From an archaeon (GTDB taxonomy: Archaea > Iainarchaeota > Iainarchaeia > Iainarchaeales > CSSED10-239), in contig DAOOUC010000015.1 in assembly GCA_035390665.1 (NCBI GenBank), forward strand, positions 1 through 7,342: DNA of 7,342 nt, given 5' to 3'. How positions within the stretch are numbered: the first letter of the stretch is position 1; the number at the start of each line of letters is the position of its first letter. Below, one piece after another: positions 1 through 7,058 of this stretch. Below the pieces are notes generated by a model. The model was given only the letters and a program-made list of their open reading frames with translations, searched no databases and had not been told where the DNA came from. Position numbers and translations under genes: made by a program.

Positions 1-705
1 CAGACATCAACTTATGTTTATGACACAGGTGCAGCTCCAGAAAATTTAATTGTTGGTTTTATATTTCAAGGAATAGATAGTAATGCAACAATAGATAATG
101 ATCAAAATCTAGTAAGTATAAGAATACCATTTGGAATAAATAGAGCAAATTTAATTCCAATAATTGAAGTAGAAGAAGGTTGTAGTATATATCCAGAAAG
201 TGGTATTTCTCAAAATTTTAATGTGCCTGTAACTTATACAGTAAGTTCAATAACAGGGCAAAGACTTTATACAGTTATAGTAACAAACAATCCACGCGTA
301 TTTGCTCCAATTGCAAGTGTTTCTGGAGGCAATTATAATTTACCAATAACTGTTGAGTTATCAACTCAAACACCTGGAGCAATAATTAAGTACACAACAA
401 ATGGTTCTTTTCCAACATTATCTAGTAATACTTATAATAATCCAATAACAATCAATTCTACAACGATTCTAAAAGCAAAAACTTACCTTTATGTTGGTCC
501 ACTATTGAGTTCAAGTAATTCTTCAAGAGGAAACTCTAGTCCAAAGAACATACAAAATATAGTCCCTGCCCCTTTGGTGTGGTTAAGCAGTAGTGTGTTA
601 ACAGAAGAATATATTTTTCCAAGAAAAACACCAAGTAAAAACAAACACGAAGTAATAACAAAAGAAAAAGAAAAAAAGGAGTTCACACAGAACAGTGAAA
701 AGTAA
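1..705 (+). CDS. Secreted/cell-surface multi-domain protein, C-terminal 234 aa (5' end lies upstream of the window)
   Basis: Frame 1 has no stop from nt 1 to the TAA at 703-705, so the GTG at 223 used by the ORF track is not a required start. Translation of 1-222 reads QTSTYVYDTGAAPENLIVGFIFQGIDSNATIDNDQNLVSIRIPFGINRANLIPIIEVEEGCSIYPESGISQNFN and continues VPVTYTVSSITGQRLYTVIVT. This follows the 'IxF..ID...IxVxVPxG....LxP.I.V..G..I.P.SG...F..PVxYTV....G....YTVxV' pattern typical of beta-sandwich modules in cell-surface proteins. Nt 325-618 (GGNYNLPITVELSTQTPGAIIKYTTNGSFPTLSSNTYNNPITINSTTILKAKTY...SSSVLTEEYIF) matches my recollection of the chitobiase/beta-hexosaminidase C-terminal (Fn3-associated) domain consensus. 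The protein ends in a Lys/Glu-rich tail with no TM segment. Confidence 0.8.
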   Translation, partial: QTSTYVYDTGAAPENLIVGFIFQGIDSNATIDNDQNLVSIRIPFGINRANLIPIIEVEEGCSIYPESGISQNFNVPVTYTVSSITGQRLYTVIVTNNPRVFAPIASVSGGNYNLPITVELSTQTPGAIIKYTTNGSFPTLSSNTYNNPITINSTTILKAKTYLYVGPLLSSSNSSRGNSSPKNIQNIVPAPLVWLSSSVLTEEYIFPRKTPSKNKHEVITKEKEKKEFTQNSEK

Positions 706-713
706 CTGTTGTA

Positions 714-721
714 TTTATAAA
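714..721 (+). promoter_or_regulatory. Candidate archaeal TATA box (TTTATAAA) for the 773-4899 gene cluster
   Basis: TTTATAAA lies in the 67-bp spacer, about 52 nt upstream of ATG 773. A start about 25 nt downstream would leave a short leader containing the AGGTG Shine-Dalgarno at 761-765. AT-rich background makes chance matches likely. Confidence 0.3.
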
Positions 722-772
722 GATTATGATGTATAATTTTCAATAAATAGTATTTTTAAAAGGTGCAAATAG

Positions 773-874
773 ATGTTAACTTCAAAAAAAAAAGGACAGA
801 TTTCTGTTGAAGCTTTAATAATTGTTGGAGTTTTAGTTATTGGAGGAATAATATTTGCGTCTGTTTTTTTAGGA
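773..874 (+). other. Class III (prepilin-type) signal peptide plus hydrophobic pilin N-terminal helix; predicted prepilin-peptidase cleavage between Gly8 and Gln9 (nt 796/797)
   Basis: KKKG|QISVEALII followed by an uninterrupted hydrophobic stretch to Gly34. Compare the SKKGQI(S/A)xE N-termini of EppA-processed Methanococcus pilins (from memory). Confidence 0.75.
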
Positions 875-2458
875 AATATTAATAATCAAACAAAGAAAGC
901 AAACGAATTATCAGGAATTACTGATGATTTTATGAATGATTTAGAGGGATGGAATACTCCAGGTCCAGGTCCTGGTCCAGGAGGAAGTAATTGTGGCAAT
1001 CACGTTTGTGAAAACCCCCCAGAGAATCAAAGTAATTGTTCTGATTGTGAAATACCATCTGATGGTTGTAATGATAATGGCTATTGTGAACCGGAATTAG
1101 GAGAAACTGCTGCAAATTGTGATGATTGTCAAAGTCCAACATTTAGTAATTTTGTTATAAGTAAATATGCACCAACAGGAGATTCCCCAGTTAATTCTAA
1201 ATTTAGTTTAAAAGCAGAAATAACGTCTAGTTATCCTTCTGTAGAAATTTATGATATTAAATTAACTAAATTTGATCCAATTTCATATTCTTGGAGTAAT
1301 TCAAATAAATGTGCAATAAAAGGAACGGCTCCAGATGCAGGAACAGGAATATATCCAGGGACATTATTAATGACAATAGAAGATGTTTCTTTAAAAAATC
1401 ACGGAAAAATTATTGATGAAATCAGTTGTAGTGAAGAAGGAGAATACAGATTTTCAGCATTGGCTAGACCAAAAGGAGTTACAGGAGTGCCTTCTTTATC
1501 AGATGATGAAGCAAAAATTATAACATCAGCACCAGTGGGATGCGGAAATCCAGCAATTTGTGAATCTGGAGAAACCTGTGCAACATGTACAGAATGTTGT
1601 ACCATACCAGGAACATCTTTTGGAGTTTTAATTTCTTCTCCAACAGATCAAAAATATTATAATAATACAGATAATATTAATTTTATTGCAATAACAGCAC
1701 CAGAATTAAAACCTGGAGAAACCGATAGTTGTGTATGGTATGTTAATGAAAAAATAGAGATTCCTTTAACCGGGCAACAAAATAGTTGTTCATTATCACA
1801 AGTTTCTTTATCAGATACTTCTGTCTTTTCAGAAGGATTAAATAAAATTACAGTATATGCTCAAAGAAGTACAACTGCAGGAAAAAAATTAGAAGCTAAC
1901 GCAAGTGTAGGAATATATATCTTAAAACCAATAAATCCAGGAACATTATATTTATTAACACCAAGAAATTTGCTTGTTGGAGAAAATTTTAATTTAATGG
2001 TTTATGGAACAAATCAAGGATCAGTTAATGCCCCAAGAAATATAAATAATTTTACATTTACAGGAAATAAATGTGTAGTAACTTCTTCAACACCAACTTG
2101 TGGAACAACAACAGTAAATGGAACTGATGTTTACTATTGTGATTATCCCGCAATTTGCTCACAGCCAGCATATTCACAAACAGGAGTACATAATCCTACA
2201 GAAATTACAGCCAGTATGACAGGCACAACAGAAACAGCTAAATTTTATTCAGAATATGATTTGTGGTTTGATTTTGGAAATTGTAGTGTGACTGCTACAA
2301 GTTATGGAAAAATGCATGCATGTTTATCATCCTCTAGTGGAATGGGATATAATAGCGATTATTGGAATAATTCTAGTGGATTATTAAAAGCAAATGTGGA
2401 TGTTTCATTTAATATGACAAAAAATATTAATGGTACTTTAAAAGTATATGTGGAATAA
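773..2458 (+). CDS. Large Cys-rich type IV pilin-like (class III signal peptide) surface protein, putative pilus-associated adhesin
   Basis: The ORF is 561 aa. ATG 773 is preceded by AGGTG (761-765) with a 7-nt spacer. The N-terminus MLTSKKKG|QISVEALIIVGVLVIGGIIFASVFLG has a basic n-region, Gly at -1, Gln +1, Ser +3, Glu +5 and about 25 hydrophobic residues. This fits the QxSxExxx(L/I) archaeal class III signal peptide motif (DUF361-type pilins; Szabo et al. 2007). A (PG)4 linker follows, then three short Cys modules, then beta-rich S/T/N-rich sequence with many N-x-S/T sequons. There are 24 Cys in total and no enzymatic motif. Confidence 0.88.
   Translation: MLTSKKKGQISVEALIIVGVLVIGGIIFASVFLGNINNQTKKANELSGITDDFMNDLEGWNTPGPGPGPGGSNCGNHVCENPPENQSNCSDCEIPSDGCNDNGYCEPELGETAANCDDCQSPTFSNFVISKYAPTGDSPVNSKFSLKAEITSSYPSVEIYDIKLTKFDPISYSWSNSNKCAIKGTAPDAGTGIYPGTLLMTIEDVSLKNHGKIIDEISCSEEGEYRFSALARPKGVTGVPSLSDDEAKIITSAPVGCGNPAICESGETCATCTECCTIPGTSFGVLISSPTDQKYYNNTDNINFIAITAPELKPGETDSCVWYVNEKIEIPLTGQQNSCSLSQVSLSDTSVFSEGLNKITVYAQRSTTAGKKLEANASVGIYILKPINPGTLYLLTPRNLLVGENFNLMVYGTNQGSVNAPRNINNFTFTGNKCVVTSSTPTCGTTTVNGTDVYYCDYPAICSQPAYSQTGVHNPTEITASMTGTTETAKFYSEYDLWFDFGNCSVTATSYGKMHACLSSSSGMGYNSDYWNNSSGLLKANVDVSFNMTKNINGTLKVYVE
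959..985 (+). repeat. Hexanucleotide microsatellite CCAGGT CCAGGT CCTGGT CCAGGA GGA encoding the PGPGPGPGG linker
   Basis: Direct reading of 959-985. It is a locally G+C-rich patch containing four CCWGG sites, placed immediately after the pilin-like N-terminal segment. Confidence 0.9.
992..1129 (+). other. Two tandem 4-Cys mini-modules (C-x4/5-C-E-x8/9-C-x2-C)
   Basis: The two modules read CGNHVCENPPENQSNCSDC (C74,C79,C89,C92) and CNDNGYCEPELGETAANCDDC (C99,C105,C116,C119). Both are acidic, with the same Cys spacing pattern. Confidence 0.8.
1541..1600 (+). other. Third, related Cys module (6 Cys)
   Basis: CGNPAICESGETCATCTECC (C257,C263,C269,C272,C275,C276) shares the CGN-x2/3-C-E start and the C-x2-C end with modules I and II. 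It separates two beta-rich regions. Confidence 0.7.
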
Positions 2459-2483
2459 ATAAAAATGGGAGAAAGGAAAAAAT

Positions 2484-2558
2484 ATGAATAAAATAAATTT
2501 GTCAAAGATTTTTTTAATATTAGCGATAGCTATTATTTCATTAAATTTAGTATTTGCA
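2484..2558 (+). other. Sec-type signal peptide (predicted cleavage after VFA, residue 25)
   Basis: MNKINLSKIFLILAIAIISLNLVFA|GS has a basic n-region (K3, K8), a 15-aa hydrophobic core and small residues at -1/-3. There is no Cys lipobox and no G|Q prepilin motif. Confidence 0.7.
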
Positions 2559-4559
2559 GGAAGTATGGCTAAACGTTATAGAATAAGTGGTGATTTAATA
2601 ATTAGTAACAACCTAGATTATGCTTGTCAAAATGGAGGAGATTGGACTTCTGGATCAACTATAGAAGAGAATGAATATGAGAGCGGCACAGGGATAGAAT
2701 TATCTAATGTTAAATTAAATGAGTTTTTTGACAAATTATTTTTTGTCGCGACTCCTGCATCCACATGTAGTTTAGAAATTTGGTCTCCATCTGGAGTAAA
2801 GGTTTATGAAAGATCAGGATTAAATGCAAATGCTATAAAAACAGGTTTAAATGAAGGAATTGTTTTACAAAATGTTGTTGTGGACACAAATTCAACTAAT
2901 ATAACCTTAAATTTTGCTGTAAAAATTAAACATGCAACAGCAGGATATTTATTAGAAACAACAGTAAAAGTACCAAATATTAATAATCAATTATTCATTA
3001 ATGCAGATAATGTAATTGCTACAATAAGTGAAACAGAAAGTGGATTTGATGCAGGCGCAAAACCTGTTTTAATGTTAGAAAAAAGAGAGAATGATGGGCA
3101 GTTTTATTATTTGCCTGTTTGGAGAAGAATAAATACCTATAATATTGCATCTGGGGGAGTAATTCCACAAAATGATTTATCAATTGTTGATAGAAATATG
3201 ACCGGGAAAGATAGTTGGGTTTTATCATGGGATGCCGGTGCAGGTAAAATGAAATGGACAAATGAGATTACAACAAGCATTATTAAAGATGGCACACTAT
3301 TACCTCAAGATTTTAATCCAAATGCAGTTTTTTCAAAAATTGGGGGTACAGTAGTTACTGAGACCGTAGGATCATTTATAACAGGTAGTAATAAATATTT
3401 AAAATTTACACACGACGGAATAGATTATTATTTAAAATTAGAACAAAAGCCAGCTACAGCTAGTTCAATGGAAGTAGGAAGTAATGGTTCTGTAATTGCG
3501 GGTAATACTTATACTAGGACTGCACAAATTAATGCAGTTACTGGTTTAACTTGGGGATTTCCATCAGGAATTACAATCCAATCAGGGCAAGGAACAGCGA
3601 CAGCTACATTTTTAGCCACAGGAATAGGCGCAAAAACAATTACTTTAAATGGGACAACAAATACAGGTTCGCCAATATCTGATTCTTTTACTTTAAATGT
3701 TTCAGACTCAACAAATTTAGAGGTTGGTGGCGACATGACTGTTTCCTTTTCAAGTGGTAGTAGTAATAGTTTTGAAAGAGAAATTGTAGCAACTGGAGTA
3801 AATCAAAGTACAATTAATTGGGAAGTTCTTCCTTCAGGAACAGGAGTTACAATTAATGATGTGTCTCCTGCATCTAATTTAAAAAAGAGAATTACAGTAT
3901 CAACTTACGGAACACGCACAATAAAAATTACTGGAATTTCAGTCTATAGCGGACAAGTTGTAACAGATTCATTTATTTTAACTGCGGCTCAATCTGGAGG
4001 AAGTAATCCACCACCAGGCCCACCAGGAGGAGGAATAAATTGTTTCAAGTCAGGAACACCAGTTTTAACATCTACAGGATATAAACCAATAGAATCAATA
4101 AAACAAGGAGATTTAGTTTATTCTTTAGATGAAAAAACAAATAAAATTGTTTTAACAAAAGTAAATAAATTATTAGTGCATGATACAATATCTTTTGCTC
4201 CAACAATTAAGTTAAAATTAAATAATAATGTAGAATTAATTGTTACAACAAACCATGCATTTTATGATCCTATAGCCAAAGGATATAAGCAATTAAGATT
4301 CTTTACAATAGGAGATAAACTGTTGTATTATAATGGAACAAAAAATACAGAAGTAGAAATCACAAGTATGGAAAAACAAGATGATTTATTAGTTTCATAT
4401 AATTTATCATTAGAATATCCAAATAATTATTTCGTAAATGGTATATTAGTTCATAATGATATAAAAGGTGGAGCTGATATTAATCCAACACCTGGCGGTT
4501 GTTATCAAGAAGGCCCTGGAGGGGTATTGTATTGGTACGATAGTTGTCAAGGAATATAA
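2484..4559 (+). CDS. Secreted surface protein with tandem Ig-like modules and a C-terminal Hint (intein-like) autoprocessing domain
   Basis: The ORF is 691 aa and starts 25 nt after the previous stop, with GGGAG/AAGGA purine-rich SD-like sequence upstream. It has an N-terminal Sec-type signal peptide, an unassigned region of about 300 aa, two homologous modules of about 85-95 aa, the linker GGSNPPPGPPGGG, a Hint domain (residues 520-658) and a 33-aa tail. No TM segment or known anchor motif follows the signal peptide. Confidence 0.92.
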   Translation: MNKINLSKIFLILAIAIISLNLVFAGSMAKRYRISGDLIISNNLDYACQNGGDWTSGSTIEENEYESGTGIELSNVKLNEFFDKLFFVATPASTCSLEIWSPSGVKVYERSGLNANAIKTGLNEGIVLQNVVVDTNSTNITLNFAVKIKHATAGYLLETTVKVPNINNQLFINADNVIATISETESGFDAGAKPVLMLEKRENDGQFYYLPVWRRINTYNIASGGVIPQNDLSIVDRNMTGKDSWVLSWDAGAGKMKWTNEITTSIIKDGTLLPQDFNPNAVFSKIGGTVVTETVGSFITGSNKYLKFTHDGIDYYLKLEQKPATASSMEVGSNGSVIAGNTYTRTAQINAVTGLTWGFPSGITIQSGQGTATATFLATGIGAKTITLNGTTNTGSPISDSFTLNVSDSTNLEVGGDMTVSFSSGSSNSFEREIVATGVNQSTINWEVLPSGTGVTINDVSPASNLKKRITVSTYGTRTIKITGISVYSGQVVTDSFILTAAQSGGSNPPPGPPGGGINCFKSGTPVLTSTGYKPIESIKQGDLVYSLDEKTNKIVLTKVNKLLVHDTISFAPTIKLKLNNNVELIVTTNHAFYDPIAKGYKQLRFFTIGDKLLYYNGTKNTEVEITSMEKQDDLLVSYNLSLEYPNNYFVNGILVHNDIKGGADINPTPGGCYQEGPGGVLYWYDSCQGI
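3462..3986 (+). repeat. Two tandem, divergent Ig-like (Big_2-like) modules at protein level (about residues 327-407 and 408-501)
   Basis: The two modules align by eye: MEVG/LEVG; LTWGFPSGITIQSG versus INWEVLPSGTGVTINDV; ATFLATGIGAKTITLNGTTNTGSPISDSFTLNV versus RITVSTYGTRTIKITGISVYSGQVVTDSFILTA. The nucleotide sequences are not repeated, so the duplication is ancient. Confidence 0.65.
4041..4457 (+). other. Hint domain (mini-intein-sized, BIL / pre-toxin-HINT-like), residues Cys520-Asn658
   Basis: Block A is CFKSGTPVLTSTGYKPIESIKQGDLV. Block B is LIVTTNHAF (T588-x-x-H591). Block F is DLLVSYNLSLEYPNNYFVNG. Block G is ILVHN (H657-N658). The +1 residue is Asp659, which is not Cys/Ser/Thr. At 139 aa there is no room for a homing-endonuclease insert. 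Confidence 0.85.
4458..4556 (+). other. 33-aa C-terminal tail downstream of the Hint domain (potentially released peptide)
   Basis: DIKGGADINPTPGGCYQEGPGGVLYWYDSCQGI is Gly/Pro-rich, has two Cys (C673, C688; C-x14-C) and an aromatic patch, VLYWY. Confidence 0.6.
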
Positions 4560-4566
4560 AATGAAA

Positions 4567-4583
4567 TTTCTTTTTTTCTTTTT
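4567..4583 (+). terminator. Oligo-T tract (TTTCTTTTTTTCTTTTT), possible partial archaeal terminator/attenuator between the Hint gene and the small gene
   Basis: There is a run of seven T (4571-4577) plus five T (4579-4583), starting 8 nt after the stop codon. Archaeal termination commonly occurs at oligo-T. However, the next gene starts only 23 nt later with a strong SD, so read-through is likely. Confidence 0.3.
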
Positions 4584-4605
4584 ATATATATAGGAGGGAG
4601 ATATT

Positions 4606-4899
4606 GTGAAAAATGATAATAAAACAAAAATTTTGTATCTGACATTAGGAATTATAATTGGTGTAGCTTTAACTATGCTTTTTCAAATTACAATATTAGG
4701 AAATGCGAATAAGTCAATAGTAAAAAAAGTAAATACAATTAATTATTATGGATTAGCGGAAGATTGTTTAAATGGTGGAGGAACCGCAATTACAAATCCA
4801 AATGCGCATTATGGAGATGACGGAGTAACATATTATCCAAATGGGTCATTTACATGCAGCGTAAATGGAACTTCCACTACTGTTCCATTACCAGTATAA
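4606..4899 (+). CDS. Small N-terminally membrane-anchored extracytoplasmic protein, two Cys, unknown function
   Basis: The ORF is 97 aa. GTG 4606 is preceded by a strong SD, AGGAGGGAG (4592-4600). MKNDNKTK is followed by the hydrophobic segment ILYLTLGIIIGVALTMLFQITILG (signal anchor; no G|Q/A prepilin site and no AxA site). A 65-aa Gly/Asn/Thr-rich ectodomain follows, with C54 and C84. Confidence 0.7.
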   Translation: MKNDNKTKILYLTLGIIIGVALTMLFQITILGNANKSIVKKVNTINYYGLAEDCLNGGGTAITNPNAHYGDDGVTYYPNGSFTCSVNGTSTTVPLPV

Positions 4900-4900
4900 A

Positions 4901-4936
4901 TCTTTTCCCTTTTGCTTTCTTTTTTCCTTTCTCTTT
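4901..4936 (+). terminator. 36-nt polypyrimidine/oligo-T tract, probable archaeal terminator of the surface-protein cluster
   Basis: TCTTTTCCCTTTTGCTTTCTTTTTTCCTTTCTCTTT is 35/36 pyrimidines, includes T4 and T6 runs, and starts 2 nt after the TAA at 4897-4899. Confidence 0.5.
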
Positions 4937-5193
4937 ATAAACCTTTTGCCTCTATAATTTATTCTATATACATATAATTTTTAATCGATTAGAGTTTTTT
5001 CTAATCTCTTTAGACCTTTATTAAAGTTAATCTTTTGATTGACTTTTCTGTAGACTGTTTGCTGGTACCTTAATCAGTGGAATGGCACTTTGCTGTTTTG
5101 CCACTAACCAACATTTAAATGCAGAAACATTAAATACTGGAGATTTTTCTCAAGTATCTGTTTCTACATTTTTTCTGTTCTACAATTTTAATA

Positions 5194-5201
5194 TTTAAAT
5201 A
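5194..5201 (+). promoter_or_regulatory. Candidate TATA box (TTTAAATA) of the ribosomal-protein operon, centred in a 14-bp perfect palindrome AATATTTAAATATT (5190-5203)
   Basis: It matches the archaeal TATA consensus TTTAWATA and lies 37-44 nt upstream of ATG 5238. The implied transcription start would be about 10-15 nt before the ATG, and no SD precedes rpl3, which is consistent with a very short leader. Confidence 0.4.
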
Positions 5202-5237
5202 TTGATTAAATAAAAATTTGACAAAAAAAGATCATTT

Positions 5238-6224
5238 ATGAGTAATCGAAATAAACCAAGAGCAGGTTCAATGGCATTTTACCCAAGAGTAAGAGCAGAT
5301 AGTATTGTGCCAAAGTTTAATACTTACGGGGATGTCCCAAAAACAATTAAAGGCTGTAAACCTCTTTGCTTTTATGCTATAAAAGCAGGAAGTACCTATG
5401 TTATGGCAAAGAATGCAAAAAAAGGTGCATCAACTTATGGTCAAGAGATTTCAGTACCAGTAACAATTGTTGAAACTCCTGATTTAAAAATCGTAGGTGC
5501 AAGATTCTATAAACACCATTCAGTAAATGCAGGAAAAAAAGCAATCTTTGAGTTTACAAACCAAGATGCTGATTTTAAAAAAAGAGTTACAGGAAACAAA
5601 CAGAAAAAAACTATTTCTTATGAAGATGCATTGAAAAGAAAAGATGAAGCTGATTCTATTGTCTTAATAGCGACAGTTAACTACAAGGCAACAGGAATAG
5701 GCCAAAAGAAACCAGTCATAGTTGAAGTACCATTAACAGGGACTTATGAAGAACAATTAAACTATTTAAAAGAAAAATTAAATAAGACAATTTCAGTTGA
5801 TGAAGTCTTTAAGGTTGATGATTATTTAGATGCTAAAGGAATAACAACAGGTTATGGAACAACAGGTGTTGTTGAGAGATTTAATATAAAAGTTCAAAGA
5901 AGAAAAGCAAATAAATCTCAAAGACATGTTGGTTCAATTAATCCATGGCACCCAGCAACAATTATGTTTAATGTTGCAAGAGCAGGACAATATGGATTCC
6001 ATAATAGAACAGAGTCTAATAAAAGACTATTAATGATTGATTCTGATATTAATAAAGTTAATAGAAAAGGTGGCTTTAAAAACTACGGTTTATTAAAAAA
6101 CAAATATATTTTAGTTGCAGGAACTTTGCCAGGAACAACTAAAAGAGTAATTGTTTTAAGACAAACAATAAGACCACAAAGAACAAAATTAGAAGTTACA
6201 GATATTAATTATATTGCTAAATAA
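5238..6224 (+). CDS. rpl3: 50S ribosomal protein uL3 (archaeal L3)
   Basis: The ORF is 328 aa. KPRAGSMAFYPRVRA, ISVPVTIVETP and GSINPWHPATIMFNVARAGQYGFHNRTESNKRLL correspond to conserved archaeal L3 blocks (compare RPRRGSLAFSPRKRA and PRAGQMGFHQRTE in methanogen L3, from memory). Length and position ahead of L4 fit. Confidence 0.97.
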   Translation: MSNRNKPRAGSMAFYPRVRADSIVPKFNTYGDVPKTIKGCKPLCFYAIKAGSTYVMAKNAKKGASTYGQEISVPVTIVETPDLKIVGARFYKHHSVNAGKKAIFEFTNQDADFKKRVTGNKQKKTISYEDALKRKDEADSIVLIATVNYKATGIGQKKPVIVEVPLTGTYEEQLNYLKEKLNKTISVDEVFKVDDYLDAKGITTGYGTTGVVERFNIKVQRRKANKSQRHVGSINPWHPATIMFNVARAGQYGFHNRTESNKRLLMIDSDINKVNRKGGFKNYGLLKNKYILVAGTLPGTTKRVIVLRQTIRPQRTKLEVTDINYIAK

Positions 6225-6245
6225 TTTAAAAGGTATTGATTATCT

Positions 6246-7058
6246 ATGAAAGCAAACATTTATGATTTAGAAGGAAAAGTAATAAAGGAAGTAGAATTAC
6301 CTGAATATTTTAAAGAAGACTATAGACCTGATCTAATTAAAAGAGCAGTAATCTCTAGCCAGTCTAAAGAATATCAAGCAATGGGTGTTTCTCCTTACTC
6401 AAATAGAGGATACACTGCAGAATATAGAGGTAGAAGAAAAGAAAACAAAGCAAATATTACTATTAATACAGGTAAAGCAAGACTTCCAAGAACAAAAAAC
6501 AAAAGAGTATTAATGGCAGGAAGAGTTATGGGTGTAAGTCAAGCAGTTGGCGGCCCAAAGGCACATCCTCCAGTAGTTGCTAAAAACTTAATTAAAAAGA
6601 TAAATAGTAAAGAAAGAACAAAAGCTATAATTTCAGCAGTAGCCGCAACTGCAAACCAAAGACTTGTTTTAGAAAGAGGCCACATATTACCTGAGAAAAT
6701 TACTTTACCAATTATTTTTGATAATAAATTTGAAGGCTTAACAAAGACTTCTCAAATCTTTAATGTTCTTGAGAAATTCGGATTAGACAAAGATGTAATT
6801 AAAGCAAAAGACAAGAAAACAATAAGAGCAGGAAAAGGAAAAATGAGAGGAAGAAAATACAAGAGAAGAAAAAGTATTCTTTTCGTTTTAGCAGACAGTA
6901 AGAATTACAAGGCTTTCGGTAACCTTGAAGGCGCCGATGTTATAACTGCAAAACAATTGTCAATCAAAGAATTAGCTCCAGGAACACATGCTGGAAGATT
7001 AACAATATATAGTCAAGCAGCAGTTGAAGAATTAAAGAAAAGATTTGGAAATCAATAA
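6246..7058 (+). CDS. rpl4: 50S ribosomal protein uL4 (archaeal L4/L1e type)
   Basis: The ORF is 270 aa. MKANIYDLEGK..., DYRPDLIKRAV, QAVGGPKAHPP, KERTKAIISAVAATAN and IRAGKGKMRGRKYKRRKSILFV are hallmark archaeal L4 blocks. It starts 21 nt after rpl3. Confidence 0.97.
   Translation: MKANIYDLEGKVIKEVELPEYFKEDYRPDLIKRAVISSQSKEYQAMGVSPYSNRGYTAEYRGRRKENKANITINTGKARLPRTKNKRVLMAGRVMGVSQAVGGPKAHPPVVAKNLIKKINSKERTKAIISAVAATANQRLVLERGHILPEKITLPIIFDNKFEGLTKTSQIFNVLEKFGLDKDVIKAKDKKTIRAGKGKMRGRKYKRRKSILFVLADSKNYKAFGNLEGADVITAKQLSIKELAPGTHAGRLTIYSQAAVEELKKRFGNQ

Follow-up and report, generated by a model that had tools for sequence, protein, structure and literature searches.

HINT domains can be found in several kinds of secreted protein with different outcomes of autoprocessing. 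BIL domains lacking a nucleophile at position +1 yield mainly cleavage products (PMC7664689), and BIL2 of Tetrahymena joins its N-extein to lysine side chains via an isopeptide bond (PMC8616854). In Hog proteins, the region following the HINT domain is an adduct recognition region (PMC2362128), and in polymorphic toxins a HINT domain located just before the toxin domain is described as the protease that releases the toxin (PMC3482391). For VARTIG, a hypervariable system of Thermococcales, roles in conflict, immunity and self/non-self recognition have been proposed, and no counterpart was found outside Thermococcales (Makarova et al., 2021, PMC8416519). The locus analyzed here, which shares features with each of these systems, lies in a stretch of 7,342 nt (hereafter the window; contig DAOOUC010000015.1, GC content of about 30%) from an archaeon of the Iainarchaeota. 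It comprises three cassette genes, namely g1 for a pilin-like surface protein, g2 for a secreted protein with a C-terminal HINT domain and g3 for a small membrane protein, preceded by a partial open reading frame (ORF), g0, and followed by genes for ribosomal proteins (r-proteins); the allele of the window is denoted W. DPANN archaea live attached to other cells and, to our knowledge, few of the molecules behind their recognition and attachment are known. With roughly an even chance, the locus can be understood as a strain-polymorphic cell-surface module for recognition or adhesion that undergoes autoprocessing by HINT, with g3 as the membrane partner of a Cys-loop tail that follows the HINT domain.

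This reading is carried by a fixed genomic slot with exchanged contents. A word-indexed search of 5.8 billion proteins yielded 5 clusters of g2, 13 of g1 and 3 of g3, and about 17 distinct related loci were mapped via genomic context look-ups and pattern scans; the scan of a genome collection with a 7-sequence g2 alignment gave two relevant loci. The source setting of the locus is anaerobic digester and landfill-type metagenomes. Judging by the database label Candidatus Diapherotrites of a relative with at least 90% L3 identity to the L011/L026 group, the organism would be a DPANN-type archaeon. In the mapped loci, whose L3 proteins are 80-100% identical to that of the window, the order is g0, g1, g2, an optional g3, a conserved non-coding region of about 320 nt and rpl3. 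An earlier examination of the window without database searches (hereafter the sequence-only reading) had proposed that the three genes form an operon-like unit, and this observation is borne out, the unit being real and conserved: g1 and g2 are adjacent and co-oriented in all 16 distinct related loci showing both. The slot contents, for their part, differ sharply even among strains with L3 identity of at least 95%. A HINT of type A together with g3 can be found in W, L005 and L014, and a HINT of type B together with g3 in L006, L007, L009 and L029. A HINT with a short Cys-free tail and no g3 occurs in L008, L011-13 and L017/18/26, and a g2 with other C-terminal domains, devoid of both HINT and g3, in L010/15, L019, L027, L030 and L031. 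In L020, separate g2 and g3 genes are absent and one ORF (624-4826) encodes a single 1400-aa protein, in which a g1-like class III signal and about 420 g1-like residues are followed by an unrelated middle part, a C-terminal HINT (residues 1209-1346) and a 54-aa tail with two Cys. A profile of the g2 N-domain detected 22 clusters among 1.84 billion representatives, with the domain N-terminal in all of them; a HINT is present in about a third of them (~7-8), and at least 10 have C-terminal domains of other kinds that lack annotation. Judged from this family, in which HINT-bearing members are the minority, HINT is an optional module of a narrow, lineage-specific g2 family. No toxin domain was found in the C-termini of any g2 allele with Pfam, NCBIfam or PADLOC. 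In L016 (5133-5819), the g2 N-domain is split into two ORFs of 92 and 131 aa near the contig end, which may represent a frameshifted pseudogene or a sequencing error.

Entire alleles have been swapped by homologous recombination. Comparisons with blastn place the right edge of the variable block at about position 4916 of the window in seven alleles, and the left edge varies, falling either within g1 or at the end of the g2 N-domain; in L008, the recombination breakpoint lies just upstream of the module formed by g1 residues 490-561. Between L020 and the window, flanks of 87.5% and 96.9% identity enclose 4 kb of unrelated sequence. Synonymous divergence (dS) between the window and L006 rises from 0.11-0.16, the range seen for g1, the g2 N-domain and L3, to about 1.0 in the part from g2 residue 181 through g3. 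Between the window and L005, it is 0-0.02 in the HINT, the tail and g3, and 0.36-0.57 in the immunoglobulin-like (Ig-like) region and the g1 linker; for g1 residues 58-489, dS is as high as 0.57 in the comparison with a strain whose DNA is 92% identical overall. The ratio of non-synonymous to synonymous divergence (dN/dS) is below 1 throughout, with 0.2-0.8 in the cassette segments as compared to 0.05 for L3. Because dS forms a mosaic and dN/dS is below 1 everywhere, the pattern is best described, at the level of sequence, as mosaic recombination between divergent alleles with relaxed purifying selection, and not as pervasive positive selection. With orthologues at 30-90% identity and dN/dS of 0.2-0.8 in every segment, g1, g2 and g3 can all be taken as genuine genes. 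The conservation profile designates g1 residues 1-57 and 490-561, g2 residues 1-175 and g3 residues 1-40 as the constant parts (Table 1). Hypervariability of the region after the His-Asn junction of g2 had been named beforehand as the signature of a polymorphic toxin. Variability is found, and it is broader than that: the recombining cassette comprises g3 and everything in g2 past residue ~180, and the region after the junction does not stand out by its variability.

In its organization, the locus resembles VARTIG, where a secreted Ig-domain protein with a distal part made hypervariable by recombination is also followed by small variable genes, in a polymorphic-toxin-like arrangement without a toxin. 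The present locus differs in its pilin-like partner gene, its HINT domain and its fixed slot beside the r-protein operon, and the likeness is one of organization only: no relationship in sequence was found, though no VARTIG sequences were compared. The view that the locus is not a described archaeal system is fair for its exact arrangement, while polymorphic-toxin-like and hypervariable Ig modules have been described in archaea (PMC3482391; PMC8416519).

The g2 N-domain is the sole part common to all g2 alleles, and no relative of it was found in Pfam or PDB. In the window allele, PT-HINT (PF07591) is the best Pfam model for the C-terminal domain (45.2 bits for a cut-off of 27.7, E=1.4e-11, residues 527-659); in other family members, Hint or Intein_splicing outscore it. 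The Hedgehog-type model PF01079 stays below its cut-off (22.6 vs 29.7 bits). The closest solved structure is the BIL domain 2lwy from C. thermocellum (hmmsearch E=3e-13, Foldseek template modeling (TM) score 0.89), followed in both sequence and fold by BIL2 from T. thermophila (6y75; E=2e-11, TM score 0.81), and the HINT of UmbC1, a Streptomyces umbrella toxin (8w20), is also among the closest PDB matches. The AlphaFold2 (AF2) model adopts the HINT fold, with a predicted local distance difference test (pLDDT) of ~80-89 across residues 520-658.

All 13 HINT-bearing members harbor Cys1 within CF[KLS]xGT (Cys520 in CFKSGT in the window), the block B motif VTxNH (T588-T-N-H591) and a G[IV]xVHN ending (…GILVHN658, then D659), and each of them has D, K, R or I at +1, never Cys, Ser or Thr. 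Because Cys1, TxxH and the terminal His-Asn are present and the +1 nucleophile is absent, the HINT of g2 should self-cleave rather than splice; its residues are those suited to an N-S acyl shift with thioester formation and to Asn cyclization, and not to canonical splicing. The sequence-only reading had located the thioester at Asn519, which does directly precede Cys520, but the -1 residue in homologues can be N, F, Y, S, T, P or G. Two further patterns, each coming from few independent lineages, are a Lys at tail position +1 to +3 in 13 of 13 HINT-bearing members and, among alleles of type B, the joint occurrence of an additional Cys at -2 (NPC[FY]/C) and an additional tail Cys at +6/+7. A mobile intein can be discarded, given the Asp at +1, the lack of an endonuclease and the location of the domain in a variable secreted protein, 33 residues short of its C-terminus. 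With A-type BIL domains (2lwy, 6y75), the g2 domain shares the HINT fold, Cys1, the block B TxxH, the C-terminal His-Asn, the missing +1 nucleophile and the occurrence within secreted variable proteins. It differs from them in its archaeal (DPANN) host, in its position at the extreme C-terminus with 15-54 residues after it, in being an optional part of a recombining cassette and in that one of its tail types has a small membrane protein as a dedicated partner.

The tails, of 15-54 aa across the family, all have a proximal segment in common (D-x-K-G/H-G…, or K-D-A-S/T in type B), to which a Cys-loop of the form GGC[YW]x10-12Wx2-4C is added in some; tails with this loop are 33-35 aa long and anionic. 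g3 can be found in 6 of 6 distinct loci with a Cys-loop tail as compared to 0 of 9 without (Fisher exact 2e-4, phylogeny ignored), although the lineages are few and related, so that such statistics overstate independence. In L008 and L015, which have no g3, the g2 stop codon leads straight into the conserved non-coding region, and the g3/HINT state changes repeatedly between strains with L3 identity of at least 95%. The g3 clusters all adjoin g2 where checked. In the transmembrane region of g3, G15xxxG19, T23, F26 and Q27 are invariant and followed by GNANK. The ectodomain displays two subtypes, subtype I being NPNxHYGxDG…YYPxGSxxC and subtype II being present in L009 and L014; they combine freely with tail/HINT types A and B, all four combinations being seen, and L009 and L029 have nearly the same tail with different g3 subtypes. 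Since g3 and tail subtypes reassort, g3 is tied to the Cys-loop tail as such and not to one allele. The inclusion of g3 in the unit thus needs a qualification: it is linked to g2, but conditionally, with the Cys-loop tail only. Both the tail and the g3 ectodomain display a Gly-rich Cys loop with aromatic residues, but homology between them was rejected at an hhalign probability of 0.8%.

The g1 protein begins with MLTSKKKG/QISVEALIIVGVLVIGG, where the slash marks the putative processing site, with the motif KKKG/QISVEAL. Q9, S11, E13, A14 and L15 are invariant in 12 homologues, giving the pattern G/A-Q-x-S-x-E-A-L, with Gly or Ala in first place. The basic N-terminus, the [KR][GA]/Q site, the Glu at mature position 5 and the hydrophobic helix are those of a class III signal peptide, and the g1 match covers the 27-position model PF04021 (Class_IIIsignal) from end to end. 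In the AF2 model, a 43-residue helix (residues 12-54) is followed by a Cys-rich linker, which is disordered, and then by three beta-sandwich domains. The alignments behind the structure models are shallow, with 5 and 11 sequences, and the models cannot be relied on for the g2 N-domain, g2 residues 175-325, the tail and the g1 C-terminus. When the g1 model was compared with known folds, the matches were complement C3/C5 MG-domain stacks, adhesins and S-layer proteins with TM scores of 0.13-0.24; these are read as generic tandem beta-sandwich likeness and not as a sign of kinship with thioester proteins. No sequence relatives of g1, the g2 N-domain or g3 were found in PDB, the match of the g1 N-terminus to the archaeal 'flagellin' chain 8fk7 being weak and non-significant (E=0.94). 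As in archaeal type IV pilin-like proteins, a basic N-terminus, a G/Q motif, a Glu at +5 and a hydrophobic helix of ~45 residues precede Ig-like domains. Unlike these proteins, g1 is very large (561 aa), has a Cys-rich linker and three beta-sandwiches, scores below the Pfam threshold and has no assembly genes in the retrieved stretch of ~7-22 kb.

The gene calls and expression signals described for the window are confirmed. The three plus-strand ORFs are present in the six-frame ORF list at the positions given in Table 1, separated by spacers of 25 nt (g1-g2) and 46 nt (g2-g3), and each is preceded by a Shine-Dalgarno-like purine run: AGGTG at 761-765 for g1, GGGAG..AAGGA at 2467-2478 for g2 and AGGAGGGAG at 4592-4600 for g3, whose start codon is GTG. 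The TATA-like box upstream of g1 is also present, and most related loci, including L006, L007, L011, L018, L019 and L020, have retained a TTTATAAA(G/T) box between g0 and g1. No other 40-nt stretch of the 7.3 kb is as rich in T as the one at the terminator-like tract after g3, with 26 T in 40. A T7 run (4571-4577) and TTTATATA (4581-4588) within the g2-g3 spacer of the window allele had been overlooked. Downstream of g3, rpl3, rpl4 and the start of rpl23 can be found, and an identical sequence opens a 138-kb contig that runs on into a complete archaeal r-protein operon. tRNA and Rfam scans of the window gave nothing relevant.

Also confirmed are the single N-terminal hydrophobic segment in each of g1, g2 and g3, with no further transmembrane segment, and the absence of any enzymatic domain other than HINT (Pfam, NCBIfam, PHROGs, PADLOC). 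The same four resources gave HINT alone when known toxin, defence or phage families were considered for the three proteins. An archaeosortase/PGF-CTERM-type sorting signal was discarded, as none of them has a C-terminal hydrophobic segment, and so was viral carriage, as a viral contig scan with the g2 alignment gave no match. The GGSN motif next to Pro/Gly linkers, which had been regarded as common to g1 and g2, is present in the window; orthologues 87-90% identical read PGSGTGTGITITC and GGGGINPPNPPGGGVNC instead, so that the motif is considered a low-complexity coincidence.

Table 1. Coordinates of the features of the locus; positions are those of the window unless another locus is named, and identities are mean pairwise values.
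Feature	Position	Strand	Remarks
g0, M6-family (InhA-like) secreted zinc metalloprotease	1..705 (partial)		CHB_HEX_C/Fn3_assoc domains; full in L009 6978-9932 and L010 6911-9949
TATA-like box TTTATAAA	714..721	+	probable cassette promoter; same box in related loci
g1, type-IV-pilin-like (class III signal peptide) surface protein	773..2458	+	561 aa, 24 Cys
g1 residues 1-57, class-III-type signal and long N-terminal hydrophobic helix	773..943	+	identity 62%
g1 residues 58-489, Gly/Pro- and Cys-rich linker, three beta-sandwich domains	944..2239	+	variable, identity 37-42%
g1 residues 490-561, conserved C-terminal module	2240..2455	+	identity 50%, minimum 33%
g2, Sec-secreted anchorless multidomain protein with C-terminal HINT	2484..4559	+	691 aa
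g2 residues 1-26, Sec-type signal peptide (…LVFA/GS)	2484..2561	+	F24, A25 invariant; identity of signal peptide and N-domain 49-62%
g2 residues 27-175, lineage-specific N-domain	2562..3008	+	two invariant Cys, C48 and C95
g2 residues 176-505, variable region	3009..3998	+	330-505, two confidently modelled Ig-like domains; identity 31-44%
g2 residues 506-519, Gly/Pro linker ending in Asn519	3999..4040	+	Asn519 is -1 of the scissile bond
g2 residues 520-658, HINT/BIL-type domain	4041..4457	+	Cys520, T588-x-x-H591, His657-Asn658; identity 53%
g2 residues 659-691, post-HINT tail DIKGGADINPTPGG-C673…W…C688	4458..4556	+	proximal segment, conserved Lys (+3), Cys-loop add-on; identity 37%
T7 run and TTTATATA	4571..4588	+	g2-g3 spacer; not conserved in other alleles
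g3, type-II membrane protein	4606..4899	+	97 aa; transmembrane segment ~residues 9-31; variable ectodomain, C54…C84 loop; identity 64% (transmembrane region), 36% (ectodomain)
T-richest tract	4897..4940	+	right-hand boundary of the variable cassette falls within, ~4916

In the recognition or adhesion module favored here, g1 would be cut after Gly8 by a prepilin peptidase, and its hydrophobic helix would keep it in the membrane or in a pilus-like fibre with the three Ig-like domains displayed. g2 would be exported via Sec and dock by its constant N-domain, most probably onto the constant C-terminal module of g1. We infer that g1 and g2 act together, probably touching through their constant parts, because the constant end of g1 abuts the constant start of g2 with variable Ig domains flanking both, and because the L020 protein joins a g1-like N-terminal part to a HINT. 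The constant interface on the g1 side would be residues 490-561, whose coding sequence neighbors that of the conserved g2 N-domain. The variable Ig domains of g2 could form a recognition or adhesion surface directed at a host cell or at kin, or they could be the target of virus evasion. The HINT would excise itself, with a thioester at residue 519/Cys520 and a succinimide at Asn658 that frees the tail; by analogy with bacterial BIL domains, the outcome would be cleavage, and the N-fragment might also be passed on to the conserved tail Lys at +1 to +3. g3 would be a membrane-anchored partner that binds the Cys-loop tail and positions the g2 C-terminus at the membrane before or after cleavage.

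Several points weigh against this proposal. The score of g1 against PF04021 (14.7 bits, E=0.031) is below the cut-off of 23.7, and no gene for a prepilin peptidase, assembly ATPase or platform protein was found within the ~7-22 kb around the locus that the analysis covered. The neighboring conserved parts of g1 and g2 could reflect plain linkage, and AF2 confidence is low precisely at g1 residues 505-561 and g2 residues 27-175. The autoprocessing of g2 is read from its residues. The role given to g3 is drawn from co-occurrence, the tail and g3 having no detectable homology. The L020 tail is longer and holds two Cys after a vaguely similar start (EGCLRWGY), with g3 absent; if it is counted, the association between g3 and the Cys-loop may be 6 of 7 and not perfect. 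Finally, an internal terminator/promoter ahead of g3 is possible in the window allele, going by the T7 run and TTTATATA in its spacer.

The sequence-only reading had offered two functional hypotheses, covalent surface attachment through the HINT and a polymorphic-toxin-like contact weapon, each of which is only partly supported. Sec export, a constant N-terminal and a polymorphic C-terminal part, a small downstream gene and allele exchange are indeed shared with PT-HINT polymorphic toxins (PMC3482391; UmbC1 8w20, PMC11062931). As originally written, the weapon hypothesis is not supported, as no toxin domain is found, HINTs with trivial tails are intact, and g3 and tail subtypes reassort. It can be recast as a peptide-toxin/immunity pair, in which cyclization of Asn658 would free the 33-aa disulfide-looped tail as an archaeocin-like peptide and g3 would be a membrane immunity protein. 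This version, which we hold to be unlikely, is consistent with PT-HINT as the best Pfam match, with UmbC1 among the closest PDB sequence matches, with the swapping of the cassette between near-identical strains, with the toxin-releasing role described for HINT and with a small membrane-protein gene lying directly downstream and tied to the Cys-loop tail (6/6 vs 0/9). The tail of 33-35 aa is, however, anionic, and about half of the HINT alleles have Cys-free tails of 15-22 aa and no g3 while keeping all catalytic residues, which argues that the HINT has a toxin-independent job. An immunity protein also fits poorly with the g3 ectodomain and tail subtypes, which do not co-vary (as in the L009/L029 mismatch), and with g3 itself, which has no orphan copy in tail-less strains or elsewhere among the 5.8 billion proteins. 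Arrays of spare toxin/immunity cassettes are missing, and the greatest divergence is found in the Ig domains instead of the tail.

Covalent attachment would take the form of a HINT-mediated ligation similar to that of Hedgehog or BIL2, where an amine or hydroxyl group attacks the thioester at 519/Cys520 and thereby anchors the variable Ig fragment; the proposed acceptors are the conserved tail Lys, the invariant membrane-adjacent K40 of g3, g1, a lipid or a host-surface group, and the Cys-loop tail could act as an adduct recognition region recruiting g3 as acceptor. We consider this decidedly unlikely. The isopeptide bond formed by BIL2, the second-best match in structure and sequence, provides a precedent, and the tail Lys of all HINT-bearing members would offer a nearby amine; in type B, the Cys at -2 and the tail Cys would link both flanks of the junction, yet both the Lys and the Cys covariation stem from few independent lineages. 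g2 has no anchor of its own, and g3 co-occurs with the tail without allele-specific pairing. As in Hog proteins (PMC2362128), a signal peptide, a cargo, a Gly-rich junction and a HINT starting with Cys-Phe are followed by a short C-terminal region, and for the family member P0025 the Hedgehog-type Hint model is the best-scoring one. However, the Hog HINT carries out the N-S acyl shift only, whereas the g2 HINT retains the C-terminal His-Asn for a second cleavage, so that the tail can be cut away, and this tail is unrelated to sterol recognition regions. BIL domains without a +1 nucleophile mostly just cleave, and the HINT alleles without g3 would need another acceptor. Finally, the genes could be independent neighbors in a variable island of surface proteins, and the HINT could be a BIL insertion, selfish or neutral, that plays no part in the module. 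Genes for further surface proteins can be found upstream, namely for an M6 protease, additional class-III-signal proteins and a transmembrane-anchored protein of 974 aa, the HINT is dispensable, being absent from many alleles, and the function of BIL domains is generally unclear. This explanation appears very unlikely, given that g1-g2 adjacency is invariant in 16 distinct loci while the contents vary, that the pilin-like protein itself carries the HINT in L020, that the presence of g3 strictly depends on the tail type, and that the HINT catalytic residues are invariant with dN/dS of about 0.5 or lower.

Whichever function applies, the locus is a compact candidate for DPANN cell-cell recognition, with radically different alleles between otherwise near-identical strains, whose constant parts suggest docking interfaces and whose variable Ig domains suggest specificity determinants. 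It would represent a second example of a VARTIG-type hypervariable Ig module, thought to be confined to Thermococcales, the likeness being organizational, and it adds an archaeal surface system to the settings in which secreted BIL/PT-HINT autoprocessing domains occur. The alleles differ in whether they carry a HINT and in whether the Cys-loop tail and g3 are present, which provides a natural genetic contrast for HINT function. There is a rather slim chance that this DPANN surface HINT is a ligation device coupling a strain-variable Ig adhesin to a g3 Lys, to the pilin-like protein or to a host molecule; if so, Hedgehog/BIL2-type chemistry would serve to display proteins at the surface or to attach irreversibly to the host.

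The non-coding region that separates the cassette from rpl3 (4916-5237, core 5047-5125) is strongly conserved and can also be found in L006, L007, L009, L010, L011, L014, L018, L019, L020, L027 and L030. It contains an invariant T-tract and TTTATAAA box (4920-4945), followed by a leader of ~275 nt. In the almost invariant core of ~80 nt, UCUGUAGACUGUUUGCUGGUACC..AAUCAGUGG is separated by a loop of variable length from CCACUAACCAACAU.UAAAUGCAGAAA. RNAalifold pairs UCUGUA/UGCAGA, UG.UGGU/ACCA.CA and AGUGG/CCACU, with one covarying pair only, an apical loop of about 4 to 25 nt and a minimum free energy z-score of -3.2. The element has no match in Rfam and may serve this lineage as a leader of the r-protein operon or as a regulatory RNA. 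A 38-aa ORF (5082-5198; MALCCFATNQHLNAETLNTGDFSQVSVSTFFLFYNFNI) overlaps it and recurs in the closest strains L006 and L020 only; it is most likely a by-product of RNA-level conservation and not a gene.

On the other side of the cassette, the complete g0 product is ~1000 aa long and displays HEFAHxxGLPDLY and a TIGR03296 match of 127 bits, followed by four CHB_HEX_C/Fn3_assoc repeats. Every short cassette-bearing contig breaks within g0, probably due to its internal repeats or to paralogues such as the second copy in L010 (2629-5397). Further upstream in L009, ~4-9 kb from the cassette, three surface-related genes can be found: one for a 184-aa exosortase/archaeosortase-family protein (1049-1603; TIGR04178 E=2e-11; ~9 kb upstream), one for a 974-aa protein with a C-terminal transmembrane anchor (3021-5945) and one for a 150-aa class-III-signal protein with a CHB_HEX_C domain (6040-6492). 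The neighborhood of the cassette is a surface-protein island. In the more distant relatives L021 (7983-15879), L022 (1073-4045) and L025 (73-3120), large proteins of 550-1015 aa with g1-like class III N-termini are encoded directly upstream of g0, some of them with g0-like (M6/CHB_HEX_C) similarity. The pilin-like N-terminus seems to be a leader that the lineage can reuse for several of its surface proteins.

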